This document shows, piece after piece, positions 1-45,245 of a stretch of DNA of 64,000 nucleotides; the stretch's first letter is position 1, and each line of letters opens with the position of its first letter. Both the position numbers and the translations under genes were made by a program. Below the pieces are notes generated by a model. That model was not told the DNA's origin and made no database searches. It saw only the letters and a list, made by a program, of their open reading frames with translations. Origin of the DNA: Candidatus Kerfeldbacteria bacterium (GTDB lineage: Bacteria > Patescibacteriota > Patescibacteriia > UBA9570 > XYC2-FULL-38-9); assembly GCA_016182555.1 (NCBI GenBank), contig JACPGJ010000003.1, positions 10,920-74,919 on the forward strand, given 5' to 3'.

Positions 1-29
1 ATCACGTTATAAAAAATAAAGATTGAGAT

Positions 30-1970
30 ATGAATCTTTCTTCAATCGAAATTTTATCCAAAATTTTCAAAAATCCCGAGGATGACCTCGCGCTTTTTAA
101 GAATTTGAATGTTTTGGAATTTTACGAGGACGAGAAAAACCGTGTGTACGTAAAAACACTCGAATACAATGGAAATGATAAAATTGTTCTTACAGAAAAA
201 AAGACAGCCCCCGAAGAAATCGTTCGGCAGTTATTCCTGTATGAACTTCTGCATGAATATCAATATCCAAAAGACAGGATAAAACTTGAGGTTGATGTAC
301 AGTTTGGTCGTGAAATTGGAAAAAAACGTGCGGACATTGTGGTTTATCGGGAAGACATGCAAACCCCATATTTGATGGTCGAAGTAAAAAAGCCTGATGT
401 AAAAGATGGGCTAGGACAATTAAAAAGTTATGCTAATGCAACAGGCGCACCAATCCTCATTCTCACTGATGGAAAACTACAAAATAACCTTTTAAGAACC
501 GATCCAAACTTATTTGAGGACTTGCCTGATCTTCCAAAGTTCAATGAAACGGTCGAAGATGTGCAAAAGAAAATTATTACTTTTGATAACCTTGAAGAGG
601 TTACAAATCTTAAACAGCTCATCCTTGATCTCGAAAATGCGGTATTGGCAAATGCTGGCGTTAATTCCTTTGAAGAAATTTTTAAACTCATTCAAACTAA
701 GCTTTATGATGAACTTGAAACTCCACGAAATCAAAATAGGCGTTTCCGTGTTATTGCAGGAGTAAGCAATAAAGAAAATTTGGATAATATCTCACGTCTT
801 TTTGCTGAATCTAAAAATCAATGGCGTGATGTTTTCAAAGATAAAGACGATATTGAAATACCAGCAAACGCTATCGTGCCAGCCGTATCGCTATTGCAAA
901 AATATCGACTTTTCGGGTCTAATCTTCAAATCATTGATGATGCTTTTGAGTACCTAATCAATCAAGATGCAAAAGGTGGGAAGGGGCAATATTTTACACC
1001 ACGCTTTGTGATTAACATGTGTGTAAAAATGCTTAATCCGAAAAAGAACGAAAATATTGTTGATACAGCTTCAGGAAGTTGCGGATTTTTGCTCCATGCA
1101 ATGCAACATGTTTGGCGAACTGAAATTACAAAAGAAAATTTCGGCAGCAGCTATGAAATGAAGCGCAAAGAATACGCGGATCAACATTTATTTGGTATCG
1201 ATTTTGACCCACGAAGCGTAAAAATCGGCAAAGCAATGATGCTTATTGCTGGCGACGGCAAAACCAATGTTACTTATGCAAATTCCTTAGACAGCGACCT
1301 TTGGGATGGAGAAGCAAAGGCAAGATTCAGTAAACTTTTACACCATTTCGACGATTTCGATTTAAACAGCAAAAATCGAGAAAAAATGACGGACTTTGAT
1401 TTTGACCTTATCATGACGAACCCGCCTTTTGCAGGTGAAGTAAAAGGGACATTGCTCAACAAATATGACCTTGGCTTTAAATTTGGTAAAGATTTTGAGC
1501 GCACAAATAAGCACCAAAACAAAATGACACGCGACATTCTGTTCATTGAGCGTAACCTAGGTTTTCTTCGCCCAGGTGGTCGCATGGCCATTGTTTTACC
1601 GCAAGGAGTATTCAACAATACCAATCAGGAGTACATCCGCCGCTATATTATGAAACAGGCACGGTTGTTGGCTGTCGTGGGTTTACATGGTAATAGTTTT
1701 AAGCCACACACAGGTACAAAAACGAGCGTACTATTTTTACAAAAATGGCGAACAGATAAAGAGCGGGAACAGGCTGGTAATTATCCAATTTTTATGGCTA
1801 CCAGCGAAAAGCCGGGAAAAAACAATAGCGGAGAATATGTATTCGCAATGGATGAAAATAATAACATCAGGAAAGATGAAAACGGGACGTATGTCTACGA
1901 TACAGATTTAGATGAAATAGCAGTCAAATTTATTGAGTTTGCAAAGAAATATAACTTTGATTTTGTTTGA
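30..1970 (+). CDS. hsdM: Type I restriction-modification N6-adenine DNA methyltransferase subunit (HsdM) with an N-terminal HsdR_N-type PD-(D/E)xK-like module
   Basis: 646-aa ORF with ATG at 30. The N-terminus carries a nuclease-fold-like stretch (KRADIVVYREDMQTPYLMVEVKKPD) typical of the HsdR_N module. The core has N6-adenine MTase motif IV NPPF (LIMTNPPFAGEV) and an AdoMet-binding-like segment (IVDTASGSCGFLLHA). Confidence 0.8.
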   Translation: MNLSSIEILSKIFKNPEDDLALFKNLNVLEFYEDEKNRVYVKTLEYNGNDKIVLTEKKTAPEEIVRQLFLYELLHEYQYPKDRIKLEVDVQFGREIGKKRADIVVYREDMQTPYLMVEVKKPDVKDGLGQLKSYANATGAPILILTDGKLQNNLLRTDPNLFEDLPDLPKFNETVEDVQKKIITFDNLEEVTNLKQLILDLENAVLANAGVNSFEEIFKLIQTKLYDELETPRNQNRRFRVIAGVSNKENLDNISRLFAESKNQWRDVFKDKDDIEIPANAIVPAVSLLQKYRLFGSNLQIIDDAFEYLINQDAKGGKGQYFTPRFVINMCVKMLNPKKNENIVDTASGSCGFLLHAMQHVWRTEITKENFGSSYEMKRKEYADQHLFGIDFDPRSVKIGKAMMLIAGDGKTNVTYANSLDSDLWDGEAKARFSKLLHHFDDFDLNSKNREKMTDFDFDLIMTNPPFAGEVKGTLLNKYDLGFKFGKDFERTNKHQNKMTRDILFIERNLGFLRPGGRMAIVLPQGVFNNTNQEYIRRYIMKQARLLAVVGLHGNSFKPHTGTKTSVLFLQKWRTDKEREQAGNYPIFMATSEKPGKNNSGEYVFAMDENNNIRKDENGTYVYDTDLDEIAVKFIEFAKKYNFDFV

Positions 1971-1971
1971 T

Positions 1972-3321
1972 ATGGCACAGATTTCTGAAATTACAGTTGA
2001 AGATTTATTGAAACATCAAAGAATTGATGCAGAATTTTTTCAACCTAAATTTTTAGATGCAGAAAGGAAAGTTGTTTCTTTTTCAAAAAAAATACAAATA
2101 AAAAAAGTCATCCACCCTAATGAGTTTAAGAGAGTATATCAAGAAAATGGGCTACAAATACTCCTTGCTCAGAATGTGAGAGATAATTGTTTAGATTTTA
2201 GCACTACTATGTTTGCAGATCCAGTGTTGAAAAATGACCTCAAACGAAACAAAGTAAATTACGATGATGTTCTCATGACAAGATCAGGTGCTAATTTTGG
2301 ACAAACGGCAGTATACAAATTTGAGAATGCTGAAATTTATGCTTGTGCGGATGTTCTCATTATTAGAAGCCAAGAAATAGCTGGTGGTTACCTTTCAACA
2401 TTTTTGAACTCTAAATATGGTAAAAGTTTAATAAACAGAGGCGTATATGGTGCAGCCCAACCACATATCGCACCATCATATTTATACTCTTTAGAAGTAC
2501 CTCAATTAAATAAAGAGTTTGAGATAAAAATAGATCAAATTACAAATGATGCTTTTTATAAACAAGAACAATCCACATCCCTCTACGCACAAGCGCAACA
2601 ACTCTTGCTTCAAGAACTTGGGCTGGATGATTTTACACCCGAATGGGTAACGGGGTACGAAATCGACCATGACAGTGTGCTTGGGGGCGCTCGTATGGAC
2701 GCGGAGTACTTTCAACCGAAGTATGAAATCGTAAAAAATAAAATTCGTGCAGTCGATCACGACACGCTAGGAAATTTAGTCAAACCGCTCAAAAAAGGTA
2801 TTGAAGTAGGTAGTGAGGCCTACGCAGAGGAAGGCATACCATTTTTACGTGTGTCAAATATTGAAAAATTCCGTATAGATAATTCAAGTGAACAATATAT
2901 TAGCAAAGAACTATACGAGGAATTGAAAGATAAGTTTTGCCCTCAAAAAAGTGAAATTTTGCTATCCAAAGACGGAACACCAGGCATTGCCTACTTTTTA
3001 ACAGAAGAAGTCAAAACGATAATTTCAGGTGGAATTGTTAGACTGAAATCGGTTGAAGTTGAACCGGAATATTTAACGCTTGTACTCAACTCTTTAATTG
3101 TTCAAACCCAAATAGAACAAGATGCAGGTGGTGCACTTATCAAACATTGGCGACCTGACCAGATCAAAACAACTCTCATTCCAATTTTGCCAAAAGAAGT
3201 GAGAGCAAAAATAGTGGCAATGGTTCAAGAAAGCTTTTCAGCACTTCACGAATCCCGCCAGCTTCTTAAACAGGCAAAGAGAGCGGTGGAGGAAATGATT
3301 GAAGCTAAAGCGTCATTTTGA
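1972..3321 (+). CDS. hsdS: Type I restriction-modification specificity subunit (HsdS)
   Basis: The ORF-track start at 1933 is a TTG. The first ATG (MAQISEI) lies 1 nt after the hsdM stop. There is an internal duplication of the conserved motif (RIDAEFFQPKFLD at the N-terminus and RMDAEYFQPKYEI mid-protein), i.e. two target-recognition halves. The size (about 450 aa) is typical of S subunits. Confidence 0.75.
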   Translation: MAQISEITVEDLLKHQRIDAEFFQPKFLDAERKVVSFSKKIQIKKVIHPNEFKRVYQENGLQILLAQNVRDNCLDFSTTMFADPVLKNDLKRNKVNYDDVLMTRSGANFGQTAVYKFENAEIYACADVLIIRSQEIAGGYLSTFLNSKYGKSLINRGVYGAAQPHIAPSYLYSLEVPQLNKEFEIKIDQITNDAFYKQEQSTSLYAQAQQLLLQELGLDDFTPEWVTGYEIDHDSVLGGARMDAEYFQPKYEIVKNKIRAVDHDTLGNLVKPLKKGIEVGSEAYAEEGIPFLRVSNIEKFRIDNSSEQYISKELYEELKDKFCPQKSEILLSKDGTPGIAYFLTEEVKTIISGGIVRLKSVEVEPEYLTLVLNSLIVQTQIEQDAGGALIKHWRPDQIKTTLIPILPKEVRAKIVAMVQESFSALHESRQLLKQAKRAVEEMIEAKASF

Positions 3322-3395
3322 AAGAATAAAGCGAAAAAATTTAGCTGCATTAAAAAAATTGCGTTTTACCGCATTATTCGGTACCATTTGCATAT

Positions 3396-3791
3396 ATGAA
3401 AATATACATTGGGCATGCTACATCGTTTGATTTTCACAATGAGCTATATACAATCATTCGTGACAGTGAAATACATCAGCAGCATGAAATTATTTTGCCT
3501 CACGAAAAAAGTAATGAACAATTTTCATCAAAAGTCTTATTTCAATCAGGATGCGATTTGATGATCGCTGAAGTGTCGTGGCCTTCAACGGGATTAGGAA
3601 TTGAGCTGGGTTGGGCAGATATGTACCGCATTCCCATTGTTTGTATTTATCGAAAAGGCTCAAAGGTATCTGGCGCATTAACAGCAGTCAGTCAATATTT
3701 TCTTGAGTACGAAAATCCATCAGATATTCCTCAGGTTGTATCCACGTATTTGGCAGAGCGTGCCCCCGTCTTTGGCGAGTTGTCTGACTAA
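3396..3791 (+). CDS. Nucleoside 2-deoxyribosyltransferase-like (NDT/LOG-fold) small protein
   Basis: 131 aa. Begins MKIYIGHA. The segment DLMIAEVSWPSTGLGIELGWADMYRIPIVCIY matches the NDT-family pattern, with an acidic residue followed by the G..E.G.A...P catalytic-Glu block. Confidence 0.5.
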   Translation: MKIYIGHATSFDFHNELYTIIRDSEIHQQHEIILPHEKSNEQFSSKVLFQSGCDLMIAEVSWPSTGLGIELGWADMYRIPIVCIYRKGSKVSGALTAVSQYFLEYENPSDIPQVVSTYLAERAPVFGELSD

Positions 3792-3917
3792 TGCAGATTT
3801 GCGTAATAACGATTGTTGATCCTTTGGATACAGTTTAAGTATTGCTGATTTTGAATAATTCCAGTAGTATGGATCTATTCAGAATGAGCAATAAATTTAA
3901 TTTTTTACCTCAACATT

Positions 3918-4361
3918 ATGGAGAGCAAAACCGTCCAAATAACACCTAAGCCAGGTGAGCAAAAATTTCAGTATGCTGGATTTTGGATAAGATTCTTAGC
4001 ATGTATTTTGGACTGGGTTGTTCTGGGAATTATAGGCTATATACTTTTTGGTAACGAAGTTACTCGTATAGAATCTGGTTCAATCAGTGTTCGTTATACT
4101 GGGTGGAAAAATATTATCCCTTTCTTATATGTACTATTATTTTGGCTATGGCTTTCCGCTACACCCGGTAAATTAATATGCCGTATTAAAATTATTGAAA
4201 TAGATGGAAGCAAGTTATCTTGGCAAAAAGCTTTGATACGAATGTTTTCATATATACCAAGTGCATTAGCGCTATTCATCGGTTTTATTTGGGCTGGATT
4301 TGATTCTAAAAAGCAAGCTTGGCATGATAAAATAGCGAAAACCTACGTGGTAAAAAAGTGA
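3918..4361 (+). CDS. RDD-family membrane protein
   Basis: 147 aa. N-terminal YAGFWIRFLACILDWVV followed by TM helices, and C-terminal WHDKIAKTYVV. These are the RDD-domain hallmarks. Confidence 0.6.
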   Translation: MESKTVQITPKPGEQKFQYAGFWIRFLACILDWVVLGIIGYILFGNEVTRIESGSISVRYTGWKNIIPFLYVLLFWLWLSATPGKLICRIKIIEIDGSKLSWQKALIRMFSYIPSALALFIGFIWAGFDSKKQAWHDKIAKTYVVKK

Positions 4362-4374
4362 TTTATCGGTAAAA

Positions 4375-4408
4375 GATGAGGAGGGGAATTGAGAGCTATT
4401 CAAAAGGT
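4375..4408. repeat. Partial (3'-half) copy of an intergenic structured repeat family (see 12312–12388 and 47072–47147)
   Basis: gatgaggaggggaattgagagctattcaaaaggt aligns with the 3' half of the 47-kb copy (atgaggtcgcgaggaattggctcaaaaggcc). It is located immediately 3' of the RDD gene. Confidence 0.4.
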
Positions 4409-4549
4409 AAAACCATTTTTTTCAGCGTTCTTTGAGTACTAGTGATTAGTACACACAGAAAGCTGGAGGTGGAGAGAGTACGCGATGTCGAAGCATGCGT
4501 CGTTTATATCGGCATGATCCCCGATTCTCTCCACCTCGTTGCTGTTGTC

Positions 4550-4831
4550 TCAGTTCTCTTCCTGCCGGAAGAGAACTGTCTCGCTCCTGTCGGGGTGGTA
4601 CGTGACCACCTCCAACATGGATAATTCCTCGCCCCCCCTGCTCTGGTCGAGCAGGGGGATGACGAGGTCACGGTGGTCGCCACACTTGTGGTACCACTCG
4701 TGCTCCTCAGGACCCTCCAACCAGACCGAGGTCACGGTCTGGTTGCTTTTCCAGGTCCGCACCTTGCCGGGGTGCAGAGACATGGTCTCGAAGCCCATGT
4801 CCCGCAGAGTAGAACTGAGAGAATTATTCAT
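4550..4831 (-). CDS. Hypothetical protein encoded inside a GC-rich island; the only protein-like frame in the island
   Basis: 93-aa ORF on the minus strand with a strong SD (GGAGG, 4-nt spacer, ATG). The residue composition is balanced, unlike the Ser/Trp/Arg-rich overlapping frames. I could not recognise a family. Confidence 0.35.
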   Translation of the reverse strand: MNNSLSSTLRDMGFETMSLHPGKVRTWKSNQTVTSVWLEGPEEHEWYHKCGDHRDLVIPLLDQSRGGEELSMLEVVTYHPDRSETVLFRQEEN

Positions 4832-5137
4832 GGCATCCTCCCTTTTTTATGCTAACTGGTATGCCATTACCCAGTCAGCGTTTTTGGATGTGCCGCATCC
4901 CACACTTGTGGAACACGGCGCGACGAGTAACGCAGCTGAGGCGCTTCTTTCATGAAAAAGTGAAAGTGAAATGCCCCGAATGCGTCACTCGTCAGGTATT
5001 TGTTTGAGACAACAGCTTTTCAATGTGCGTGTTCCGCTCAAACTACTTCTTTTCTACTGGTTCGGTTTTGCAGCGAACAGAACAAAATAGACTAGCATGG
5101 TTTTTACATTTTGTCAATACTTACTTCTGTCACGCCG

Positions 5138-5166
5138 TTGACTTTGTTCGGTATTCGTGATATAAA
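5138..5166 (+). promoter_or_regulatory. Sigma70-like promoter candidate upstream of the ABC ATPase gene
   Basis: TTGACT (5138–5143), 17-nt spacer, TATAAA (5161–5166), about 55 nt upstream of the ATG at 5222. Confidence 0.4.
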
Positions 5167-5221
5167 AAAAGTGAAAAAATGGAGCTAACTCCTCATTTTA
5201 ATATAAGCATTTTTGCATATC

Positions 5222-6463
5222 ATGCTCGAATCTGCAATACAGGTAAACAAGCTTTCTAAGGAATTTCGTATACCACATGAGCGCATTACCACCATGCGTG
5301 GTTTTTTTGTCAATATATTTAAGAAGAAACGGTATGAAGATTTTTTAGCGTTGGACAATGTTAGTTTTTCAGTACAAAAAGGAGAGTTCTTTGGAATTAT
5401 TGGAAAAAATGGTTCTGGGAAATCAACGTTATTAAAAATTTTAGCGGGTATTTATAGAGCAGATACCGGAAAGATAAAAATGAATGGTCGGATCTCTCCA
5501 TTTTTGGAATTAGGTATTGGTTTTAATCCAGAATTATCTGGCCGACAGAATATTTATTTAAATGGCGCAGTGTTAGGCATGACCAAGCAACAGATTGATA
5601 AAAAATTTGATGATATCGTCACGTTCTCTGAATTAGAAAGATTTATCGATCAGAAATTGAAAAATTATTCTTCGGGTATGCAAGTGCGATTAGCATTTTC
5701 CGTGGCTATCCATGCGAATCGAGATATTTTACTTATGGATGAAGTATTAGCGGTCGGGGACGCGAATTTTCAGCAAAAATGTTTAGGTGTATTTCGTCAC
5801 CTTCAACGACAAGGCAAAACGATTATTTTTGTTTCTCATGATATGGAAACCATGAAACAATTTGCCGACCGAGTATTAGTGCTACACCGCGGAAAGGTTG
5901 TGACCATCAGCGCTCCTGAACGTGCAGGATATGAATATAGTCAAATTTTAATGCGTGAACATAGCGCAATTCATCAAACAGCCATTGAGCGTGAAGCTCC
6001 TGATACCGTAGACCCTACACCACCAAAACAACAGAAGAAAAAAAATCGTATTGTTGGTATACAATTATTGAATCAACATGATACAGAAACGCAGGTCTTT
6101 GAGTATGGTGATGATATACGTATTCGTATAGAGTTCGATGTACAAGAACTCGTTCCAGAAATGTATGTCGGTCTTGGCATTATTGATAAGCAAACAGATG
6201 CATGGATTTGTGGAAATAATACCTATTTTGATCGATTTAATCACCACTGGAAAGTAGGGAAAAATACCGTGGTATTGAAGTTGCCAAATACCATATTTCA
6301 CAAAGGCGATTTTTATATATTGAGCAGTTTTTTTATTGGAGACCCAAAAGAGAATGCCATGATGGATTTTTATGACAGCCGTGAGCATAATTTTTATTTT
6401 CGTAGTTTTCCTCGAGATCGTCGCAATGGGTTGGTGTTAATGGATCATGAATGGAAACAATAA
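5222..6463 (+). CDS. Polysaccharide/teichoic-acid export ABC transporter ATP-binding protein (Wzt/TagH-like) with a C-terminal extension domain
   Basis: Walker A GIIGKNGSGKST, ABC signature YSSGMQVRLAF and Walker B ILLMDEVLAVGD are all present. A C-terminal extension of about 150 aa beyond the NBD resembles the Wzt substrate-binding extension. The ORF-track start 5213 is a TTG; ATG at 5222. Confidence 0.8.
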   Translation: MLESAIQVNKLSKEFRIPHERITTMRGFFVNIFKKKRYEDFLALDNVSFSVQKGEFFGIIGKNGSGKSTLLKILAGIYRADTGKIKMNGRISPFLELGIGFNPELSGRQNIYLNGAVLGMTKQQIDKKFDDIVTFSELERFIDQKLKNYSSGMQVRLAFSVAIHANRDILLMDEVLAVGDANFQQKCLGVFRHLQRQGKTIIFVSHDMETMKQFADRVLVLHRGKVVTISAPERAGYEYSQILMREHSAIHQTAIEREAPDTVDPTPPKQQKKKNRIVGIQLLNQHDTETQVFEYGDDIRIRIEFDVQELVPEMYVGLGIIDKQTDAWICGNNTYFDRFNHHWKVGKNTVVLKLPNTIFHKGDFYILSSFFIGDPKENAMMDFYDSREHNFYFRSFPRDRRNGLVLMDHEWKQ

Positions 6464-7854
6464 CGTCTATGCAAACATCTATTTTTTTAATCACTTTTTG
6501 TAATCAAGATTTGTACACTCCCGTAGAAACAAATTTGTTATTACTCGATATAGAGCGGGGAACGCAGCAGTGGATTATTACTGGTAATCAATCTGGTTTA
6601 ACGGGTGTTGGTGTACATGATGAATATGTATTCGTTTTGCATCAAGGCTCACGGCCGGGTATTTTAGTTCTTGCGAAAAAAAATTTCACGGTTATTGCCA
6701 AGACGTTCTTATCAGAGTTGGTGGACCCACATTCATTGGTGGTGCAGGGGAATACGCTCTTTGTCGTTTCTACAGGAACGGATAGTGTTTTAGAATATCA
6801 ATTTGACCCTATACAACGAACTATTCAATATGTACGCGTGCTCTGGAAACCCGAACAGTCGTTAGGAACACAAGATCAATACCATATCAATTCTATTGTC
6901 AAACACCAGAATGATTTATATATTTCCGCATTTGGTCCAAAAGCGGGTGAAACTTGGAAAACGGCATTGCATGGTTTTGTCTATAACGTGACTGCACAGG
7001 ACCCACTAGATGGCTATACAGATATTTATCATCCGCATTCGTTGGTAATGGATGGACAAGATCTCTATTTTTGTGAATCTACTGCACGTGAGGTAAGAAA
7101 AAATAATGAAACAGTAATCACTTTGCCGAATGGATATGTGCGTGGATTAACAGTTACGAATGATGTGATTTTGGTGGGAACGAGCCAAGGTCGCAAAGTG
7201 TCTAAGAGTACTGGGCAAGTGAATAATTTTTTTGAACAAGAAGGAGAGATTGATGCTGTATGCGGTGTGTCTGTTTTTGATAAAAAAACACTTGAGCAAA
7301 TTCATGAGTATAATTTTTTTCCATTACACCGTGAAATTTATGAAATTGTACCTATAGAATCAATACGAGAAACAGCGTCGCTGGTGTATTTCGGTGTGCA
7401 AAATGTGGTTGATGATGTTGTCCAATTTAAACACGCCATAGAACAGAAGCAGCATACTATTGAAGAGCGAGACGCATCGCTGAATACGTTGCGACATGCT
7501 CAAGAAAAAAACGAAATTGTATTAGCGGAACGTACGCAAGAATTGCATCAAGCCCATGCGAAGATTCAACAAAAAGATCAAGAGATGAATCAGCTACAGC
7601 AGATGGTCAATATTGCTCAGCAACACACGGAGCAATTACAGGAACGAGTTGAAGAACAGAAAGATGTCATCGTTGAACAGAAAGAGACAATCACTGAACA
7701 GAAACAGTTAGTGAATACACTCAAAGAAAATGTTCAACAAGCTTATGCAGTTATCCATGATAAAGATCGTGAATTATTGAGTATGCAGGAGTCGAAATTT
7801 TGGAAATTACGCGGAGCGTACATGCAATTTAAACAGTTTATTTTGAGAAAATAA
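6451..7854 (+). CDS. Hypothetical protein: N-terminal globular domain plus C-terminal Q/E/K-rich coiled coil of about 130 aa
   Basis: 467 aa. Overlaps the upstream gene by 13 nt. The C-terminal third is low-complexity heptad-like (QELHQAHAKIQQKDQEMNQLQQMVNIAQQHTEQLQERVEEQKDVIVEQKETITEQKQLV). Confidence 0.55.
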   Translation: METITSMQTSIFLITFCNQDLYTPVETNLLLLDIERGTQQWIITGNQSGLTGVGVHDEYVFVLHQGSRPGILVLAKKNFTVIAKTFLSELVDPHSLVVQGNTLFVVSTGTDSVLEYQFDPIQRTIQYVRVLWKPEQSLGTQDQYHINSIVKHQNDLYISAFGPKAGETWKTALHGFVYNVTAQDPLDGYTDIYHPHSLVMDGQDLYFCESTAREVRKNNETVITLPNGYVRGLTVTNDVILVGTSQGRKVSKSTGQVNNFFEQEGEIDAVCGVSVFDKKTLEQIHEYNFFPLHREIYEIVPIESIRETASLVYFGVQNVVDDVVQFKHAIEQKQHTIEERDASLNTLRHAQEKNEIVLAERTQELHQAHAKIQQKDQEMNQLQQMVNIAQQHTEQLQERVEEQKDVIVEQKETITEQKQLVNTLKENVQQAYAVIHDKDRELLSMQESKFWKLRGAYMQFKQFILRK

Positions 7855-7864
7855 ACCGAGTGGT

Positions 7865-9214
7865 ATGAACAAAACCGTCTCTATTGTTACACTCAATTAT
7901 AATGGCAAACAGTATTTGCAACCACTGTTTGAAAGCTTGCAAAAACAAACATACCAACCTTGTGAAATAGTCATGGTAGATAATGCTTCAGTTGATGGGT
8001 CTGTGGAGTTTGTTGAGCAACGGTTTCCGAATGTGCGTATTATTCGCAATAGCGAGAATGTTGGTTTTGCCGGTGGGAATAATAGCGCGCTGCGGCATTG
8101 TCGCGGTGAATATATTGCGCTCATAAACAATGACATGATTGCCGATGAACGCTACATTGAATGGTTAGTACGGTCGTTAGAAGAACAGCAAGCAGATGTT
8201 ACCGGCGGCAAAATTTTGTTTTATACACCGTTTGTGACATTGCGTGTAGAGGTGAAGACATTTGTGCCGAATGAACATAACGGTGGGGGAGATGTACGCG
8301 CGTTGGGCTGTATGATTGCTTCAGATATTGCTATTGATGATGTACCATATAAAAAGAACATATTTTTGGCCAATACGTTTGGCGAAGAAAAAGCTGGTGA
8401 ACTCGCATTTCATTGGTTGAGTAATGAGGCAGTGATTAAAATTCCAGTAGACTTGAAATTGTCGCGGCATCGGCTGCGTATGAAACTGGCGGTTAGCGAT
8501 ATGCAAAAAGAAGAGGAAGTCACTATGCGTTTGGGCGAGGAGGTTATTTTTCAAAAGCGTGTATCAAATCAGTTCAGCGAATGTACTGTGGATATTGATC
8601 CAGCGCTGATCAAAAAATATGTCTGCCATGTGGTGAATAATGCATCATCTGAATTCAATACGCATTCTGGTGGTGGCCGTGATGTTGGTATTTATGAAGA
8701 CGATAAGGGTCAGTATGATACGCCGCATACCGCGCAAGCTATTTGTGGAGGGAGTATGTTGATTCGTCGTGAGGTCATTGATCGTTATGGATTATTTGAT
8801 GATTATTTTTTTGCCTATTACGAAGATACCGATTTTTCTTGGCGTTTGAATCGTGCGGGCAAAAAATTATTTTTTGAGCCACGAGCGTTTGTCTATCATG
8901 TGCATACAGGAACTTCTAAAGAATGGTCTCCGTTTTTTCGATACCACGTAGAACGAAATCGTTTAGCCATGCTATTGAAAAATGCACGGTTATTCGATGC
9001 TGCACGTGAGTGGGGTGGTTTTTTTCTGAAAACAGCTCGTGATGCGTGGCGCATGGTTCGCCGTCGCGTGTTCAAACGTCAACCAAAAACTGAAGCAGAT
9101 AGTGTCGTGTGGATTCATTTGCGGGTTTGTGGTGATTTGCTGCTGCATATTCCGGCATTACTCTGGAAACGTCTCTATTTCGTTATTGCTCTTGAGCAAC
9201 ACGATTCAGTATGA
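7865..9214 (+). CDS. Glycosyltransferase family 2 (rhamnosyl/hexosyltransferase-like)
   Basis: N-terminal SIVTLNYNGKQYL...EIVMVDNASVDGS and the DxD region NNDMIAD give a GT-A fold. A long C-terminal extension follows. Confidence 0.8.
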   Translation: MNKTVSIVTLNYNGKQYLQPLFESLQKQTYQPCEIVMVDNASVDGSVEFVEQRFPNVRIIRNSENVGFAGGNNSALRHCRGEYIALINNDMIADERYIEWLVRSLEEQQADVTGGKILFYTPFVTLRVEVKTFVPNEHNGGGDVRALGCMIASDIAIDDVPYKKNIFLANTFGEEKAGELAFHWLSNEAVIKIPVDLKLSRHRLRMKLAVSDMQKEEEVTMRLGEEVIFQKRVSNQFSECTVDIDPALIKKYVCHVVNNASSEFNTHSGGGRDVGIYEDDKGQYDTPHTAQAICGGSMLIRREVIDRYGLFDDYFFAYYEDTDFSWRLNRAGKKLFFEPRAFVYHVHTGTSKEWSPFFRYHVERNRLAMLLKNARLFDAAREWGGFFLKTARDAWRMVRRRVFKRQPKTEADSVVWIHLRVCGDLLLHIPALLWKRLYFVIALEQHDSV

Positions 9215-10785
9215 AAATCTGTATTTATAATACCTATTTGAATACCATGGGCGGTGGGGAAAAGCACATGGGTGCTCTGGCTGAATATCTCACTCAGTTT
9301 TCCGATATAGAAGTAGATATTTTAACTCACGCACAGGCTAATCTGCTGGAGTTATCCAAAAAATTGCGTATAGATTTATCGCGATGTCGGTTAATTGTAC
9401 AACATGATATTCAGCAAGACATCGAAACTTATAGTGCGCAATACGATCTTTTTATTAATACAACACACTATAGTAAATTGAAACCACGGGCCAAGAAGAA
9501 TGCGTTATTGTTGTTTTTCCCTATACTGCCGGAACTCAGATTTTTAGCAACATCACAACGGTTTAATCGATTATTACACCGGTTCGATGCAACAGAATCG
9601 ATTCGTTTGCTCACTGGGTTTTACCATCAAGAAAAAATTGGTGCATATTTTTCACGACGGTTTGGCCAATGGACACAAAAAACATTTTCATTTCAATTAC
9701 GCGCATATCAAGTAGGGCGACAACAACAGATAAAGATCAATACATTACCACTGCGTTCAGGCCGATCGTTGAGCACCCTCATTGATCACATTCGTTGTCA
9801 TGGTGAGTTGGTACCATTTCGTATTCGCAAAAATACCATTTTGTTAACGTTGACACCATCAACTGCTGAATCCATTATTACAGTGAAGCTCCGTTCAGAC
9901 TTTCAACCATCGAGTAGCGATACTCGGCGTTTAGGTATTTTTATCACCAGTATCCGTTCCGTTTTTCCTTTCACCGCGCTGCGGCATTGGTCTATGCAAC
10001 AATTGGCACGAATTTTGAAACCGTTGCGATATTACAACTACCTTGATGCTTATGATTTCATTATGGTGAATTCAGAATATACTCAACGGTGGTTAAAAAA
10101 ATTATGGAATGCCGATTCATCTATTGTGTATCCGGTGATTGATACCGAAGTATTTTATGCTCCCTCGGCACCGAAAAAAAAGATGATTATTAGCGTTGGG
10201 CGTTTTTTTGAAGGAAGCCATAACAAAAAACATCTAGCGATGATTCGAACATTTAAAAAAATGTATTTAGCAGGTGACATTCCCGATTGGGAATATCATT
10301 TGTGTGGTGGTACTCACCCGGAGCCAGTGCACCAAGCCTATTTACGCCGTATCCAAAATGAAGCTATTGGGTATCCTATTTTTGTTCACCCAGACATTCC
10401 ATTTCAAGAATTGCGTAAACGGTATCCACAAGCGTTGATTTTTTGGCATGCGTCTGGTTTTGAAGAAAATGAGCAACGTCACCCAGACCGTTTTGAACAT
10501 TTTGGCATTACCACGGTTGAAGCCATGACTGCTGGTTGTATTCCTGTAGTCATTGGAAAAGCGGGGCAATTAGAAATTGTTACACACGGGAAGAATGGAT
10601 TTTTATGGCAAACCATGGATGAATGTATGCAGTATACCAAACGCGTGATGCAAATGCCTTCATCAGAACAGCAGCGTATGTCTGAGAGAGCTCGAGAACG
10701 TGGTACGCAATTTTCTCGAAAACATTGTGAGCAGCAACTCGCAACCGCGTTTGAACCCGTGTTGACTGAATTGCGAAAATCATGA
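9211..10785 (+). CDS. Glycosyltransferase family 4 (GT-B, retaining) with a long N-terminal domain
   Basis: The C-terminal EX7E motif region RFEHFGITTVEAMTAGCIPVV...GKNGFLW is typical of GT4. Overlaps neighbours by 4 nt. Confidence 0.75.
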   Translation: MKICIYNTYLNTMGGGEKHMGALAEYLTQFSDIEVDILTHAQANLLELSKKLRIDLSRCRLIVQHDIQQDIETYSAQYDLFINTTHYSKLKPRAKKNALLLFFPILPELRFLATSQRFNRLLHRFDATESIRLLTGFYHQEKIGAYFSRRFGQWTQKTFSFQLRAYQVGRQQQIKINTLPLRSGRSLSTLIDHIRCHGELVPFRIRKNTILLTLTPSTAESIITVKLRSDFQPSSSDTRRLGIFITSIRSVFPFTALRHWSMQQLARILKPLRYYNYLDAYDFIMVNSEYTQRWLKKLWNADSSIVYPVIDTEVFYAPSAPKKKMIISVGRFFEGSHNKKHLAMIRTFKKMYLAGDIPDWEYHLCGGTHPEPVHQAYLRRIQNEAIGYPIFVHPDIPFQELRKRYPQALIFWHASGFEENEQRHPDRFEHFGITTVEAMTAGCIPVVIGKAGQLEIVTHGKNGFLWQTMDECMQYTKRVMQMPSSEQQRMSERARERGTQFSRKHCEQQLATAFEPVLTELRKS

Positions 10786-12302
10786 ATGGGCTTTATCGAT
10801 TCTATCGAAATCATATTAAGCGCTATATTCCGCGTCGTGTATTGAATGTCATATTGAGTGTATTCGGTGTGCATGGTTTTGCCAACGAGCAGAAGCATAT
10901 CGATCAGTCATTTGTGGTACGACAGCCATATGCATCATGCTTACGGGTGCGGAAATTTTTTTCTACGCGTAGACTCGCTCGTCAATTGCTCACTCGCGTT
11001 ACACTGATGCCAAACATATTTGTATTGATTGATGATGGAAAATTGACGTATCAAGCATTGATGCAAAAAATGGAAAACATGCATTCGGATTATGTATTGC
11101 TGGTGAATCCGAGTGATCATTTTTTTTCTGATACATTGCTGCAATATACAGCGGCAGTGTGCGAGAATCCAGATGCAAAAATAGTCTATGGTGATTATGT
11201 GGTACGTTCTGCTGGGCGTATGACTGCCGTATATTTGCCACATTTTTCTCCGTATTATTTCCAGCAGATTCGGTATATTCCGCATACAGCCCTTATTCAT
11301 ATTTCGGTGATTCGCGCTTGTCAGCGCCTTCCTCAAGCGAATGAAGAGTTTATGACAGAAGCCATTGCCCAGTGCCAAACGAAAGACGTGCTACACATAC
11401 CCGCATTCCTCACGAGCATTTCCCCAGCAGCTTATCAGTTACTGAATGCCGTACGGCCTGTGGTATACACGCTACAGTCGAACGCATTAGTCTCTATTAT
11501 TATTCCAACCAAAGATCATCCAGAATTATTACGTGCCTGTATCGAAAGCATTGCACGTTACACCAAGCAACGATATGAAATACTGATTGTGAATAATCAA
11601 TCAGAGCGCCCGGAAATGTTGAAATATTTGGCTGAATTACGAACGCAGCATACAGTGATTGATTATTCGCAACCATTTGATTATGCAGCAATGAATAATC
11701 TGGCGGCGTCACAGGCGAATGGAGCATATCTATTGTTGCTCAATGATGATATTGTGGCAACAGATGATGGTTGGCTAGAGCAAATGGTGGCGCTTGGCTC
11801 GCAGTCGAAGGTTGGAGTGGTTGGCGCTAAATTAGTATATCCCAATGGCGCTATTCAACATGCCGGATTGTGTTTGACGAGTATCAATAATGGAGTGACG
11901 TATTACTGGCATAAATATTTACGCTCTCGCCGAAAGGATGGTTCGCTTGAACCAGGATATCTTTCTTCAGTAGTGGCCGTGCGTGAAGTTGCAGCGGTAA
12001 CAGGGGCTTGTTTATTGATAAAAAAGCAACTGTTTGATGAGTTGAATGGCTTTGATTCGGAGTTGCATATTGGCTATAATGATGTCGATTTGTGTTTACG
12101 AGCACGAGAACTTGGTTATAGTGTGTTATATACGCCCTATGCAGAATTGATTCACCATGAATCGATGACTCGGAAGGCGAGTGCTCAGGTATCCATGATG
12201 CAACACCCAGAAGACAGTGCACGGTTTATTCACAAATGGAGGCATGTTCTTGAAAAAGGAGATCCGTATGTTAATTCAAAACTGAGCATTAAACAATTCT
12301 AA
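10782..12302 (+). CDS. Glycosyltransferase family 2 (two-domain)
   Basis: The C-terminal half contains VSIIIPTKDHPELLRACIESI...ILIVNNQS...LLLNDDIV and GFDSELHIGYNDVDLCLRARELGYSV (GT2). The N-terminal half is a degenerate GT-like domain. Confidence 0.75.
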   Translation: MNGLYRFYRNHIKRYIPRRVLNVILSVFGVHGFANEQKHIDQSFVVRQPYASCLRVRKFFSTRRLARQLLTRVTLMPNIFVLIDDGKLTYQALMQKMENMHSDYVLLVNPSDHFFSDTLLQYTAAVCENPDAKIVYGDYVVRSAGRMTAVYLPHFSPYYFQQIRYIPHTALIHISVIRACQRLPQANEEFMTEAIAQCQTKDVLHIPAFLTSISPAAYQLLNAVRPVVYTLQSNALVSIIIPTKDHPELLRACIESIARYTKQRYEILIVNNQSERPEMLKYLAELRTQHTVIDYSQPFDYAAMNNLAASQANGAYLLLLNDDIVATDDGWLEQMVALGSQSKVGVVGAKLVYPNGAIQHAGLCLTSINNGVTYYWHKYLRSRRKDGSLEPGYLSSVVAVREVAAVTGACLLIKKQLFDELNGFDSELHIGYNDVDLCLRARELGYSVLYTPYAELIHHESMTRKASAQVSMMQHPEDSARFIHKWRHVLEKGDPYVNSKLSIKQF

Positions 12303-12311
12303 ATCTCACTT

Positions 12312-12388
12312 GGCCGTAGCGGCAATTCTGGAGAGAGCACGTATTTGCGAAGCAAAACGAAGCTCTCGAAGAATTGGCGCGGGAGGCC
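12312..12388. repeat. Structured intergenic repeat (REP/terminator-like extended hairpin), copy A
   Basis: ggccgtagcggcaattctggagagagcac-gtatttgcgaagcaaaacga-agctctcgaagaattggcgcgggaggcc. Outer stem caattct/agaattg, inner stem gagagc/gctctc, conserved loop tttgcg.agcaaaa. Homologous to 47072–47147 with compensatory changes. Sits between convergent gene ends. Confidence 0.6.
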
Positions 12389-12392: not shown

Positions 12393-14531
12393 TTAATTTG
12401 TATATATCAATAGTGAATTGAGAACCACGCGGTCAGTGAATTCATGTGGTAGGAGTTGTAATTGCAAATTCAATTCGGTTACATTTTCTGGAATATCGAT
12501 AGCAATATTTTTCCATTCGAAAATATCTTGTAAATGAATATCTTTTGTATTCACCACAGTGCCATCCAGTAATGTCACTATCGCACGAACAATATCATTT
12601 TCCTGAACCCCTTGGCCTTGCAGCGCAATATGCAACTGATGTTGTTGTGATGTTGAAATATGGCTATAGGTAACCTGCCCACCGGTAATATTTGTAGAAG
12701 TGATTCCATCAAATGTTCGTCCGCCAATGCTGGATTGCTGTAGGACGTTATTTTTTTCAAGAGAAATCGAGGGATTCTGATATTCATAGCTTCCTAAATC
12801 ACTTGCATAGAGCAAAGTTGATTTCACCTCGCTTGTGTCTGGTTCAATCGCAACAATGATAGTTTTCTGTTCATCTGAATCATTGTTGGTATGTAATATT
12901 TCTACACGTGGTTGTTGGGAAATTTGTTCCAGCATTTTTCCCCCATTATTAGGCAATGCATCGGCATGCAGAACGACATGGGTAATACCGAGTAGTTCAA
13001 GATAATCAATGCTGGTATTATCAGGAAAATTGGAAATAACCGATTCAGAGAAATGATAATCTGGCGGAAGATATCCGCTATATCCATTGAATATCGGCTT
13101 CCAATGGCACCGAGAATTAAAAATATAGTGCACGGTTTCAAATGGATCAGCATAAAATGGGAGTTCGACTAGTGATTGTATATCTGGGTTTGTTCGTACT
13201 GCGTCATAGATAGCAGGGCATTCAACATGACTCACCACCTGGTTTGCCATATTGGTGTCATACGCATCAAAGAGAATAGAAAATGGTAGAAGCAGTGCCA
13301 CGATATATCGTACAACCGGACGTTTGATATGAATGGAGCGAATCGTATAGGCAACGACAATGGAAAGGCAGAGCAATACGATAATAGCCATGCGGCTCGG
13401 TGCACGAATAAATTGAAACGCTGGTATAGATTGAATAGCGAAAAATGGAAGAGGAATTTTTAATGTTTGATCAAATAGATGGAGCGCTGGGCCCATTGAA
13501 AGAATAATAAACAGGATAACGCCCACGCCGTAGATGGAAAATATTCTACTTTCTTTTTGTAATTTTTTTCGCTGATAGATTGCATAGATGAACAATAGTA
13601 ATGGAGCAAATCCAAGGAAGTTGATGTTTTCGAGCCAACGTTCTTTATGCAGCCCAACCCATGATACGAGATATTGGGGGTAGCTATAAGGAGAAGGGAT
13701 GAGATATCCACCAAGATCGGCGGAATAACCAATAACCTCATGAATAGAGAATGCTGAATGTTCTTGATGATTGAATTGCATGTACGCATAGGCAAATGGA
13801 CCAATCAACAGGAGAAACAGTGTGCCGGCAATGGCGATATCTATGAAGAGTGATTTACAGTGTGTTTGCAGTCGTGTTCGAATAGTTTTCATATTCGCAG
13901 CAAGTAGATAGAGTGTCAGAAATCCGAGAAACGCTCCATTATACCAGCTGGCCAGTGCTTGCGCAGCAAACAGTAAGGTAAAAATGATAAGCATTGAACG
14001 TTTCCACTGTTCTATATATTTTTGCAAACAGAGCACCGCAAAGGGAATAAAGATAATGGATAGATTTTGAAAATGATGAAAACTAATAATGCGATAGGTG
14101 GAAAATCCAAAAATAAGCCCCGCAATGAATGCCGCATATCGGTGGTGAGTATAATGAAGCGCTAAAAGGTATGCACCATATGCCGCAAGGATATAAAAAA
14201 GAAAGATGAGTATATTGTAAGTGGCAATGGTATTATGAGTGATCGCATAGATGGGGAGAGCCATGATGCTCTGCGTCAGTAATAAATCACTGTACAGAAG
14301 CACTTGGTGGTGTGGATAGAAAATATTGGCGTTGAGTAATTGTAATGGGTGAGTAGTGAGTGCGTGCATGTTCCAGCTGATGATCCAGTTGAGCAGGAGA
14401 TTATCTCTATTTAAGATACGAGAGCCAACATGAGATAATAGTGGATAACAAAAAAAAGTTGCTACAAGGCTATAAAGGAAAATCACAACCAAATGATGAC
14501 CATGTCGGAATTTTCCTTTGAGATGATGCAT
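12393..14531 (-). CDS. Large polytopic membrane protein, GT-C-like (ArnT/PMT/YfhO-type) putative lipid-linked-sugar glycosyltransferase with a C-terminal extracytoplasmic domain
   Basis: 712 aa. The N-terminal roughly 450 aa have many predicted TM helices and the C-terminal about 250 aa are soluble. It is the last gene of the operon UXS, GT2, this gene; its ATG abuts the stop of the GT2 gene. Confidence 0.5.
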   Translation of the reverse strand: MHHLKGKFRHGHHLVVIFLYSLVATFFCYPLLSHVGSRILNRDNLLLNWIISWNMHALTTHPLQLLNANIFYPHHQVLLYSDLLLTQSIMALPIYAITHNTIATYNILIFLFYILAAYGAYLLALHYTHHRYAAFIAGLIFGFSTYRIISFHHFQNLSIIFIPFAVLCLQKYIEQWKRSMLIIFTLLFAAQALASWYNGAFLGFLTLYLLAANMKTIRTRLQTHCKSLFIDIAIAGTLFLLLIGPFAYAYMQFNHQEHSAFSIHEVIGYSADLGGYLIPSPYSYPQYLVSWVGLHKERWLENINFLGFAPLLLFIYAIYQRKKLQKESRIFSIYGVGVILFIILSMGPALHLFDQTLKIPLPFFAIQSIPAFQFIRAPSRMAIIVLLCLSIVVAYTIRSIHIKRPVVRYIVALLLPFSILFDAYDTNMANQVVSHVECPAIYDAVRTNPDIQSLVELPFYADPFETVHYIFNSRCHWKPIFNGYSGYLPPDYHFSESVISNFPDNTSIDYLELLGITHVVLHADALPNNGGKMLEQISQQPRVEILHTNNDSDEQKTIIVAIEPDTSEVKSTLLYASDLGSYEYQNPSISLEKNNVLQQSSIGGRTFDGITSTNITGGQVTYSHISTSQQHQLHIALQGQGVQENDIVRAIVTLLDGTVVNTKDIHLQDIFEWKNIAIDIPENVTELNLQLQLLPHEFTDRVVLNSLLIYTN

Positions 14532-23457: not shown

Positions 23458-23458
23458 C

Positions 23459-33798: not shown

Positions 33799-33852
33799 AC
33801 AATTTTTTGGCCTACTGGTCAACGAGAGAGTTTTTTCGTATACTGCTTGGGT

Positions 33853-44825: not shown

Positions 44826-45245
44826 ATGAAAGTGATTATCAAAAAAACAGGCGAAGTAAAGAATGTTTCTGATGGATATGCGCGTAATTTTCTTTTTCCC
44901 CATGGTTTAGCTGTTGCCGCAACAGCTAAAGAGATCGCCAACGCTCAGAAACAGCAGCAACAGAAAAAAATGTCTTTGCAACAGCAGCAAGTGATTTGGC
45001 AAGAATTAGCGAAAACATTACCGGCCACAACGATCACTATTCATGCCCGTGCCAACACGGACGGAACGCTCTTTGGCAGTTTACAAAAATCTGTTATACT
45101 CAAAGCCATAGTGGCAGCCGGTATTTCCATGGAAGAATCATGGTTACTTTTGCCTGAACCCATCAAAAAAACTGGGAAGCAAACTATCGCCGTTCACTTC
45201 CCGAACGGAGCAGAGGCCTCATTTATTCTTGACGTCATATCATAA
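44826..45245 (+). CDS. rplI: 50S ribosomal protein L9
   Basis: [43 protein letters not shown] matches the L9 N-domain. 139 aa. Confidence 0.75.

Follow-up and report, generated by a model that had tools for sequence, protein, structure and literature searches.

Candidatus Kerfeldbacteria, a CPR lineage, is the source of the MAG from which a 64-kb stretch of DNA, here termed the window, was analyzed. The window carries wzt, the gene for the ATPase of a glycan export pump, with no permease gene (wzm) beside it, and, next to wzt, the gene for a coiled-coil protein. Capped-glycan assembly with a coiled-coil ruler and a cap-reading ABC transporter is known from a few enterobacterial prototypes, which use methyl, phosphomethyl, and Kdo caps. 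Ultra-small CPR bacteria, with their essentially uncharted surface polymers, seem to follow this logic as well. We favor, with moderate confidence, a reading in which the locus serves termination and export in an ABC-transporter-dependent capped-glycan pathway, with wzm most likely located elsewhere.

The wzt gene and its missing partner

The wzt gene occupies positions 5222 to 6463 of the forward strand and encodes 413 aa when read from its ATG; a TTG at 5213 is an alternative start. The first-pass annotation had proposed an ABC ATPase with intact motifs and a C-terminal extension of the cap-binding kind, and both proposals were borne out. Walker A (GKNGSGKS), the signature (YSSGM), Walker B (ILLMDE), and the H-loop (SHD) are present, and the product matches ABC_tran (PF00005) in Pfam at an E value of 2e-22. 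The extension was recognized as Wzt_C (PF14524), a carbohydrate-binding, cap-recognition domain (CBD), over residues 275 to 408 (positions 6035 to 6436, forward strand) with a score of 39.9 bits, above the cut-off of 30.4. Residues 32 to 366 align to full-length Aquifex aeolicus Wzt (7K2T/8DKU) with an E value of 3e-66, reaching into the CBD, and the closest Wzt homologs are 58 to 61% identical. The TagH equivalog models PRK13545/PRK13546 of NCBIfam matched the NBD only, at scores below their cut-offs (188.8 bits versus 538 and 173.5 versus 320). Judged by its sequence, the product of 5222 to 6463 is a Wzt-type ABC ATPase with a Wzt_C domain.

Downstream, the gene for the coiled-coil protein (6451 to 7854) lies between wzt and three glycosyltransferase genes, all on the forward strand, and the spacing within this set of five (10 nt or less, or overlapping) is operon-like. 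The presumed polymerase trio, assigned through Pfam, consists of a GT2 protein of 449 aa (7865 to 9214), with an ortholog at 53% identity in a second Kerfeldbacteria species; a GT4 protein (Glycos_transf_1) of 524 aa (9211 to 10785), the start of which overlaps the preceding gene and which has an ortholog at 54% identity in locus L032; and a GT2 protein of 506 aa (10782 to 12302), which closes the co-directional set and has an ortholog at 40% identity in L032/L033. A putative sigma-70-type promoter of the wzt operon was read by eye at 5138 to 5166 of the forward strand (TTGACT, a 17-nt spacer, and TGaTATAAA, an extended -10 element). This element was not listed by the consensus promoter scanner, which accepts only -10 hexamers with a T in position 6. 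As a separate observation, the motif TTGTCAATACTTAC is common to two upstream regions, and the similarity stops at the 14-mer.

It had also been stated that wzm normally lies directly upstream of wzt and that no ABC-2 permease is encoded in the window, and both statements held. In every close Wzt homolog locus examined (L002 to L007, L035, and L036), wzm is immediately 5' of wzt, at the place where the window holds 860 bp of unrelated DNA (4362 to 5221) between wzt and the gene for an RDD protein (3918 to 4361, Pfam); wzm itself measures about 780 bp in the closest relatives. ABC2_membrane was absent in Pfam searches of all window ORFs that reach 100 aa and have three or more predicted transmembrane segments, and tblastn of two Wzm proteins against the whole window gave a best E value of 0.75. 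The 860-bp slot was free of any Wzm remnant detectable by tblastn with Wzm proteins, and wzm was likewise absent from the 2,087 bp upstream (L001) and the 784 bp downstream (L030) of the window.

The GC-rich island that had been noted upstream, next to the RDD gene, was confirmed at about 4450 to 4950; it lies in an orphan insert (4440 to 5010) that is rich in perfect hairpins and long imperfect palindromes. Its GC content reaches 0.61, versus 0.41 overall, and its fold z-scores on the two strands are -9.6 and -10.8. An independent Logan assembly (SRR12113422) is 100% identical to positions 1 to 12349 of the window, and the island is therefore not an assembler artefact. Within the insert, a 93-aa orphan ORF on the reverse strand (4550 to 4831) is preceded by a GGGAGGA Shine-Dalgarno sequence and has a foreign codon composition, with GC contents of 0.55/0.39/0.81 at codon positions 1/2/3. 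Because of this codon-position periodicity, the insert was treated as foreign coding DNA with palindromes. The candidate interpretation as a structured RNA gene was disfavored by the same clear periodicity and by Rfam, which gave no match to the insert either at gathering thresholds or at E values up to 10; ARAGORN also found nothing in it. The insert had no match in phage DNA or in JGI metagenomes, its hairpins were unmatched in viral contigs, and inspection by eye revealed no integron attC core sites (GTTRRRY / RYYYAAC) near the two long palindromes. The 93-aa ORF had no Pfam, NCBIfam, or PHROGs match; one weak, uninformative partial match to a repeat motif was all that came out of 1.84 billion representative proteins searched exhaustively, and the single-sequence AF2 model (pLDDT of 48) was unusable.

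The position of the insert raises the possibility, which we consider unlikely, that wzm was deleted when the GC-rich DNA was inserted, leaving a dead exporter, with the loss too recent for wzt and its neighbors to have decayed. The insert sits exactly at the wzm slot of the relatives and no remnant is left; APS kinase, encoded between wzt and the DUF4915 gene or nearby in relatives, is missing as well; and this MAG is unrepresented among the best 120 Wzm homologs. However, conserved sites carry no excess of substitutions in Wzt (1 deviation in the 104 columns in which 120 homologs show conservation of 95% or more) or in the DUF4915 domain of the protein encoded next to it (1 in 43 conserved columns). 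The ATPase motifs are all intact, the stop of wzt is tightly coupled to the start of the next gene, and the putative promoter between the insert and wzt is plausible. Moreover, unlinked wzm genes occur in other CPR loci, where wzm and wzt are two to four genes apart (L011 and L039), and in a second Kerfeldbacteria species, which has wzm without an adjoining wzt; the accession series, the GC content, and orthologs at 40 to 54% identity assign the Kerfeldbacteria Wzm in question (P0259) to a different species from that of the window. Since Wzt and the DUF4915 protein show no decay, wzm is therefore probably encoded elsewhere in the genome. This comparative evidence supports the earlier suggestion of a glycan export and termination module with a displaced permease. 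Because the uncoupling of wzm and wzt recurs in related genomes, the orphan wzt is less interesting on its own.

It had alternatively been suggested that the orphan ATPase has taken a GT-C or GtrA protein as its membrane partner, and we extended this idea to the RDD protein. Several polytopic membrane proteins are indeed encoded nearby (a 712-aa protein with eight transmembrane segments, PMT_2-like proteins, GtrA, and RDD), but none of them matches an ABC transmembrane-domain family, and the NBD of Wzt is 65 to 74% identical to the NBDs of the compared loci, all of which are paired with a standard Wzm. We know of no precedent for a Wzt that powers such a partner. The suggestion found no support and is very improbable.

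A DUF4915 propeller joined to a coiled coil

The gene at 6451 to 7854 of the forward strand encodes 467 aa (461 aa from the NCBI start at 6469). Its N-terminal domain, which the first-pass annotation had missed, matches DUF4915 (PF16261) in Pfam at 62.6 bits, versus a cut-off of 35. The score against TIGR03032, a hypothetical equivalog, was 53.5 bits, below the cut-off of 251.5, and by these scores the protein belongs, as a distant member, to the wider DUF4915/TIGR03032 family only. In the AF2 model (mean pLDDT of 87), residues 10 to 302 (6478 to 7356) form a six-bladed beta-propeller of 24 strands arranged in six four-stranded blades. The family alignment shows H94, H145, N147, H196, R231, R248, and E295 to be invariant, and in the model H94, H145, H196, R231, and E295 occupy equivalent positions in consecutive blades.

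The propeller is followed by an uninterrupted coiled coil of 130 aa (residues 317 to 446; 7399 to 7788), and the earlier description of a heptad-like coiled coil of about this length at the end of the protein was accurate. AF2 models it as a single helix. One heptad register holds throughout, with 70% hydrophobic a/d positions over all 130 residues, versus 14 to 49% in the other six registers. The coiled coil comprises about 18.5 heptads and would measure about 19 nm if straight. Tandem Repeats Finder located within it a 21-nt tandem repeat, equal to one heptad, in 2.4 copies (7654 to 7704). Residues 449 to 466 (7795 to 7848) are modeled as a C-terminal basic-aromatic helix, KFWKLRGAYMQFKQFILR, with a net charge of +6 when the final K467 is counted. 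Its Eisenberg hydrophobic moment is only 0.25, a value that hints at amphipathicity but not strongly; the helix is a candidate contact with the membrane or the polymerase.

Searches of Pfam and NCBIfam with the whole protein gave DUF4915 and coiled-coil noise only, with no homology to the WbdD kinase/methyltransferase or to WbbB GT99. Coiled-coil noise also dominated when the full-length profile was compared with the PDB; a propeller-only profile had no significant match there, and Foldseek matches of the propeller in the PDB were to generic propellers only. Residues 317 to 446 matched SMC, Rad50, and other coiled-coil models weakly, as might be seen if the protein were a cytoskeletal or SMC-like factor, unrelated to wzt and beside it by chance. 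These matches are confined to the coiled coil and are far below family cut-offs (28.6 bits versus 567 for SMC), however, and the N-terminal domain is DUF4915, the relatives of which are embedded in glycan clusters. We regard a chance neighbor of this sort as so improbable as to be nearly negligible.

The relatives, in which DUF4915 genes repeatedly adjoin genes for wzm/wzt, glycosyltransferases, and APS kinase, suggest a more specific role. In L036, a single 1733-aa protein (DUF4915-MTase-CC-GT2-GT2-WsaF) is encoded directly 3' of wzm-wzt-APS kinase. In L011, wzt-APSK-DUF4915 is followed by a gene for a 1015-aa MTase-CC-GT2-GT4 protein, and the order in L039 is APSK-DUF4915-wzt. Where DUF4915 is part of an MTase-CC-GT polymerase fusion, its position is N-terminal, i.e., distal, and the slot that it takes after wzt or APSK is that of Sulfotransfer_3 elsewhere. 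Of 53 DUF4915 proteins, 24 have a coiled coil that reaches 40 aa or more; lengths across the family run from about 30 to 150 aa, and tandem repeats of heptad units are found in the window protein and in L011. Among 128 neighbor ORFs at 19 DUF4915 loci, APS kinase was found six times and ABC_tran and ABC2_membrane four times each; L011, L014, L016, and L022 have both wzm and wzt within a few kb of DUF4915, and about 14 of the 19 loci have neither within reach. DUF4915 has no characterized member and drew no match in the searchable literature, a scope that does not include the terminator census of Mann, Kimber and Whitfield (2019). The locus and its relatives provide a concrete candidate function for DUF4915, that of a chain terminator.

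We also considered the possibility that the DUF4915-coiled-coil protein is a noncatalytic scaffold or adaptor, with a propeller that binds protein or glycan, or a decorating enzyme with no control over polymer length. The structural matches are mostly to nonenzymatic propellers (YWTD, Kelch, and designed proteins) and no homology to known transferases was found. About 29 of the 53 members have no substantial coiled coil, many loci have no wzt, and some loci encode sulfotransferases together with DUF4915. Nevertheless, a set of invariant His, Arg, Asn, Glu, and Asp residues, placed alike from blade to blade, is typical of propeller enzymes, and both the distal placement of DUF4915 in the MTase-CC-GT fusions and its sharing of the Sulfotransfer_3 slot speak against a scaffold or decorator, which we judge to be somewhat unlikely. 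The role of candidate ruler that had been proposed for the coiled coil is instead supported by the WbdD-like layout of the protein, by the position of its gene, which is that of wbdD, and by the glycosyltransferase fusions of the relatives.

Cap chemistry and the proposed pathway

If DUF4915 is a chain terminator, the family neighborhoods point to the kind of cap that it might add. The window CBD is 52% identical to that of L036, 42 to 45% identical to those of the Sulfotransfer_3-type loci, and 22 to 25% identical to those of L011/L039, whereas NBD identities stay at 65 to 74% throughout; the clustering of the window CBD with CBDs from sulfotransferase loci hints at a sulfate cap. A possible link of the family to PAPS synthesis is given by APS kinase, which is encoded near DUF4915 in L036 as well as in the six instances counted above; neither APS kinase nor any other sulfate activation gene is present in the window. 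DUF4915 itself has no detectable homology to a sulfotransferase, kinase, methyltransferase, or GT. None of 22 propeller-only DUF4915 members matched Sulfotransfer_1, Sulfotransfer_2, or Sulfotransfer_3 in Pfam, and Arylsulfotran_2, the beta-propeller ASST family, matched only one of the 22, weakly (E value of 0.06). A canonical sulfotransferase adjoins DUF4915 in the P0127 locus, with a weak match in L018, and the presence of sulfotransferases beside DUF4915 in some loci argues against DUF4915 being a sulfotransferase itself. Given the linkage of the family to APS kinase and its ability to stand where canonical sulfotransferases stand elsewhere, we propose an anionic group, possibly sulfate, as the most likely cap.

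A bolder version of this proposal would make DUF4915 a previously unrecognized class of beta-propeller glycan-capping enzymes, most likely PAPS-dependent sulfotransferases, with the coiled coil setting the distance at which termination occurs and a clade of Wzt_C domains evolved to read the sulfate cap; such a system would be spread widely across CPR, Chloroflexota, Acidobacteriota, and other phyla. We offer it tentatively, as a possibility that on balance we doubt. It could mean a new cap chemistry (sulfate) as well as a new catalytic fold for capping.

In the pathway that we propose, the GT2-GT4-GT2 enzymes would work at the cytoplasmic face of the membrane, where they would polymerize the glycan on a lipid carrier. 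Oligomerization of the DUF4915 protein would proceed via its 130-residue coiled coil, and, with the C-terminal basic helix at the membrane or the polymerase, the beta-propeller would be held roughly 19 nm away. Only chains that reach the propeller would be modified at the growing end, which would stop polymerization and create the cap. Wzt_C would then bind the cap, and the Wzm-Wzt pump would export the chain. wzm would have become uncoupled from wzt, with the ancestral slot now filled by the foreign GC-rich insert. To our knowledge, CPR bacteria have no outer membrane, and the product would therefore not be an LPS O antigen.

Comparison with known systems

Compared with the Wzm-Wzt transporters of A. 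aeolicus (7K2T/8DKU) and Escherichia coli O9a, the window Wzt has a homologous NBD and CBD and a complete set of ATPase motifs. The differences are that wzm is not adjacent to wzt and is absent from the 64 kb, and that the host is a CPR bacterium. The wzm-wzt-(APS kinase)-Sulfotransfer_3 clusters of other CPR bacteria (L002 to L007 and L035) have Wzt proteins that are 58 to 61% identical and CBDs that are 42 to 45% identical to those of the window, and L005 to L007 have the same GT2-GT4-GT2 pattern downstream. Unlike the window, these clusters have kept wzm adjacent, and the place of the DUF4915-coiled-coil protein is taken in them by a canonical sulfotransferase; the window also has no APS kinase.

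In WbdD (E. coli O9a and Klebsiella pneumoniae O3), an extended coiled coil lies between a distal N-terminal domain and a C-terminal helix (PMC11231755), and terminators occupy the coiled-coil ruler's distal end (PMC11231755). The window protein resembles WbdD in that its gene follows wzt and precedes the polymerase GT genes and in that its extended coiled coil is preceded by an N-terminal globular domain and followed by a short C-terminal helix (PMC11231755, PMC3482155). Likewise, the partner Wzt bears a cap-binding domain. There is, however, no kinship in sequence or fold: the catalytic part of WbdD is a methyltransferase plus kinase, whereas the putative terminator of the window is a six-bladed DUF4915 beta-propeller.

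In Klebsiella, the modules are variably split between one and several polypeptides (PMC11231755). WbbB (K. pneumoniae O12) and ORF6 (serotype O7) are single proteins that combine a terminator, a coiled coil, and polymerase GTs, and the same terminator-CC-GT-GT logic is seen in the 1733-aa protein of L036 and in L011, with its DUF4915 protein and 1015-aa neighbor. The window, by contrast, encodes the candidate terminator-CC protein and each of the three GTs as its own polypeptide, and the candidate terminator domain is neither a GT99 Kdo transferase nor a kinase/methyltransferase. By analogy, and with no sequence homology involved, the fusions and synteny of the DUF4915 family match the terminator-ruler layout of WbdD and WbbB.

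The wzt locus and its missing permease gene

The window belongs to an 86,084-bp contig from the MAG of a Candidatus Kerfeldbacteria (CPR/Patescibacteria) organism. Five genes run in one direction, overlapping or spaced by at most 10 nt: wzt (5222-6463; product MBI2410410.1), the DUF4915-coiled-coil gene (from 6451 or 6469 to 7854; MBI2410411.1), and genes for a GT2 (7865-9214), a GT4 (9211-10785) and a last GT2 (10782-12302). With this set begins a glycan super-cluster that extends to about 41 kb of the window and encodes more GT2 and GT4 proteins, GT-C/PMT_2-like polytopic proteins, GtrA, UbiA, sugar epimerases and the dTDP-rhamnose pathway. Four of its large proteins (12393-14531 on the minus strand, 23387-25402, 26498-27916 and 33847-35349) had no match in Pfam, and three of these, polytopic membrane proteins with 8 to 10 predicted TM segments, had none in NCBIfam; they probably represent diverged transferases of the GT-C type, or polymerases. 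One of them, an 8-TM protein without family assignment (26498-27916), stands in a group with an SDR epimerase (27954-28997), an SMR/EamA-like small membrane protein (29006-29362), a HAD/PGP-type phosphatase (29368-29844) and a UbiA prenyltransferase-family protein (29822-30724), a group that we take to resemble the mycobacterial decaprenyl-phosphoryl-arabinose donor pathway. On the 5' side of wzt are genes for an RDD protein and a restriction-modification pair that looks type I-like, as well as a 131-aa ORF. One partner of the pair (window 30-3321, and 1455-2075 of L001, the DNA directly upstream of the window) is 646 aa long and combines HSDR_N_2, N6_Mtase and Eco57I domains, and the other is a specificity-like subunit of 462 aa; LexA and GrpB are encoded farther upstream, and an HsdR gene was not seen.

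Judged by its sequence, the ABC ATPase is a genuine Wzt. Its Walker A, signature, Walker B and H-loop motifs are all intact, Pfam assigned ABC_tran and, above the gathering score, Wzt_C (residues 275-408), and the nearest solved structure was full-length Aquifex aeolicus Wzt (7K2T/8DKU; E = 3e-66), aligned from the ATPase domain (NBD) into the carbohydrate-binding domain (CBD). The intact motifs and the C-terminal extension described in the first-pass annotation were borne out. TagH was rejected as an identity; its models covered the NBD alone and scored far under their cut-offs. In a comparison with 120 homologs, 104 columns reached a conservation of 95% or more; the protein departs from them at 1 (median of the family, 0.5) and therefore shows no sign of decay.

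No ABC-2 permease was found among window ORFs with at least three predicted TM segments, in the 2.1 kb upstream or 0.8 kb downstream of the window, or by tblastn of the window with the Wzm proteins of the nearest relatives, and this MAG was absent among the best 120 Wzm homologs. In all of the close Wzt homologs that were examined (58-61% identity; loci L002-L007, L035 and L036), wzm, a 259-261-aa ABC2_membrane gene, lies directly upstream and ends about 10-20 bp or less 5' of wzt; therefore, the first-pass annotation was right that the arrangement here is unusual. It is not unique: two inverted genes separate wzm and wzt in locus L011, four genes separate them in locus L039, and a second Kerfeldbacteria species (L032, GCA_964578475.1; L033, GCA_016192225.1) has a lone wzm with no wzt alongside, on a contig that stops short of the expected wzt and DUF4915 position. 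That wzm is convergent on a GT2-GT4-GT2 trio orthologous to that of the window (40-54% amino acid identity) and is preceded by a GT2 and, in L033, additionally by a GT4. Most likely, the orphan wzt reflects relocation of wzm rather than a new partnership of the ATPase with another membrane protein.

The GC-rich insert in the wzm position

The 860-bp gap at 4362-5221, which is the wzm slot in relatives, holds a segment of about 500 bp with 55-61% GC in a genome of 41% GC (insert at 4440-5010, GC up to 61%). An independent Logan assembly contains the insert with the identical sequence, and Rfam gave no match to it. Several perfect hairpins of 10-12 bp and two palindromes of about 70 nt account for the strong folding of both strands (z about -10); the palindromes and a perfect 12-nt inverted repeat (4541-4552/5005-5016) border the insert. 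A 93-aa ORFan on the minus strand (4550-4831) has a strong GGGAGGA ribosome-binding site, and its GC1/2/3 of 0.55/0.39/0.81 is the signature of coding sequence from a high-GC donor. The ORF had no real homolog in a search of 1.84 billion representative proteins, nor in JGI metagenomes, phage records or PHROGs, and the searches turned up no relative of the insert. We read the segment as an orphan foreign insert that looks acquired from a high-GC donor; wzm was probably lost or relocated in connection with its arrival. A second hairpin-rich intergenic patch of about 55% GC occupies 46920-47170 and gave no Rfam match at E up to 1. It is bordered on one side by CTP synthase (45229-46905) and on the other by a minus-strand gene (about 47190-47470) that was taken by eye from its translation as ribosomal protein L27.

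Between the insert and wzt, TTGACT, a 17-nt spacer and TGaTATAAA (5138-5166), read by eye, form a plausible wzt promoter candidate. The exact 14-mer TTGTCAATACTTAC occurs at 5111-5124 and 47549-47562, about 100-110 nt 5' of two plus-strand genes, wzt and a 365-aa ORF at 47652. With up to two mismatches allowed there were 3 matches, a number equalled in 2 of 100 shuffles, and likeness between the two upstream regions was confined to the 14-mer, possibly a promoter or operator element that the two genes have in common.

The DUF4915-coiled-coil protein and its family

Pfam placed DUF4915 at residues 78-308 (62.6 bits; cut-off, 35). From 53 homologs, AlphaFold2 produced a model (mean pLDDT, 87) that has 24 strands in six four-stranded blades (residues 10-302), one helix at 317-446 and a final helix, KFWKLRGAYMQFKQFILR (residues 449-466, then K467), which is basic and aromatic with a modest hydrophobic moment. 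A single heptad register persists throughout the 130 residues, with 70% hydrophobic a/d positions, and residues 317-446 accordingly form a canonical coiled coil that runs without a break for about 18.5 heptads and would measure about 19 nm if straight; the terminal heptad-like stretch noted earlier from the sequence thus held up. An SMC/Rad50-type identity was rejected, those matches being coiled-coil noise. For the propeller, Foldseek returned generic propellers only and a profile search of the PDB gave no match. Its invariant residues are H94, H145, N147, H196, R231, R248 and E295, and it carries a conserved R-x-x-SKSTG loop. In the model, H94, H145, H196, R231 and E295 each start the equivalent strand of successive blades; from these strand positions, not from coordinates, we infer that they encircle one central site, as in propeller enzymes.

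No mention of DUF4915/TIGR03032 was found in the literature searched. Its members come from CPR, Chloroflexota, Acidobacteriota, Deltaproteobacteria-type MAGs and other groups. A tail of 60 aa or more was seen in 31 of 53 members and a coiled coil of 40 aa or more in 24, with coiled-coil lengths from about 30 to 150 aa. Fusions to methyltransferases (protein P0123) and to DUF707 (P0131 and P0147) were found, and a census of 19 loci, covering 128 ORFs no farther than 5 kb from DUF4915, included GT4 (9), GT2 (7), APS kinase (6), methyltransferases (5), ABC_tran (4) and ABC2_membrane (4). Some loci are particularly telling. In L036, which has the closest Wzt, wzm-wzt-APS kinase is followed by a 1733-aa DUF4915-MTase-coiled coil-GT2-GT2-WsaF protein; in L011, wzt-APS kinase-DUF4915 precedes a 1015-aa MTase-coiled coil-GT2-GT4 protein; and L039 has the order APS kinase-DUF4915-wzt.

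A 21-nt tandem repeat, exactly one heptad, is present in 2.4 copies inside the window coiled coil (7654-7704), and the coiled coil of the 1015-aa protein contains three tandem 14-residue units (LANLTQAIQQKDQE; L011 about 11530-11830). Such heptad-unit repeats suggest that coiled-coil length changes via slippage or duplication. Together with the wide range of lengths in the family, they are what would be expected if selection acted on the length of a spacer, not proof of a ruler function.

Cap chemistry and comparison with known chain terminators

The NBDs of the compared Wzt proteins are 65-74% identical, and the CBDs fall into clades: that of the window is 52% identical to that of L036 (APS kinase plus DUF4915), 42-45% to those of three Sulfotransfer_3 loci and just 22-25% to those of L011 and L039. 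Since CBDs are cap-specific (PMC11231755, PMC9445017), this pattern suggests that the window Wzt recognises the cap type of the sulfotransferase loci and that DUF4915 may be able to stand in for the sulfotransferase. A canonical Sulfotransfer_3 occupies the same slot, after wzt/APS kinase, as DUF4915 in L005-L007 and L035. Against this reading, no APS kinase is encoded in the window, DUF4915 has no homology to sulfotransferases and, in some loci, a canonical sulfotransferase is encoded in addition to DUF4915; we consider the sulfation reading less likely than not. In CPR wzm-wzt clusters (L005-L007, L035, L036, L011 and L039), a cluster-borne APS kinase is common beside a sulfotransferase or DUF4915, sometimes with a PAPS_reduct/CysD-like gene, which implies a wide occurrence of sulfated surface glycans among these reduced genomes.

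The rules of capped-glycan assembly have been summarised by Kelly et al. 2024 (PMC11231755): in WbdD, N-terminal catalytic domains are followed by a coiled coil and then by a C-terminal amphipathic helix and polymerase recruitment site; polymerase modules are fused or separate; and the cap is read by the carbohydrate-binding module of Wzt. Each architectural rule appears to be kept by the window protein and its relatives, with a candidate catalytic module of another fold, the uncharacterised DUF4915 propeller. Therefore, on present evidence, the protein would work like WbdD and WbbB, but it does not belong to their families, since the homology test failed in Pfam and NCBIfam. The comparative evidence supports the main reading of the first-pass annotation, a glycan export/termination module with a displaced permease and a coiled-coil ruler candidate. 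The locus is a variant, in a CPR bacterium, of the known capped-glycan ABC-transporter pathway; it carries the DUF4915 propeller, a candidate terminator on a putative 130-residue ruler, and has wzm uncoupled from wzt, with a foreign GC-rich insert in its place.
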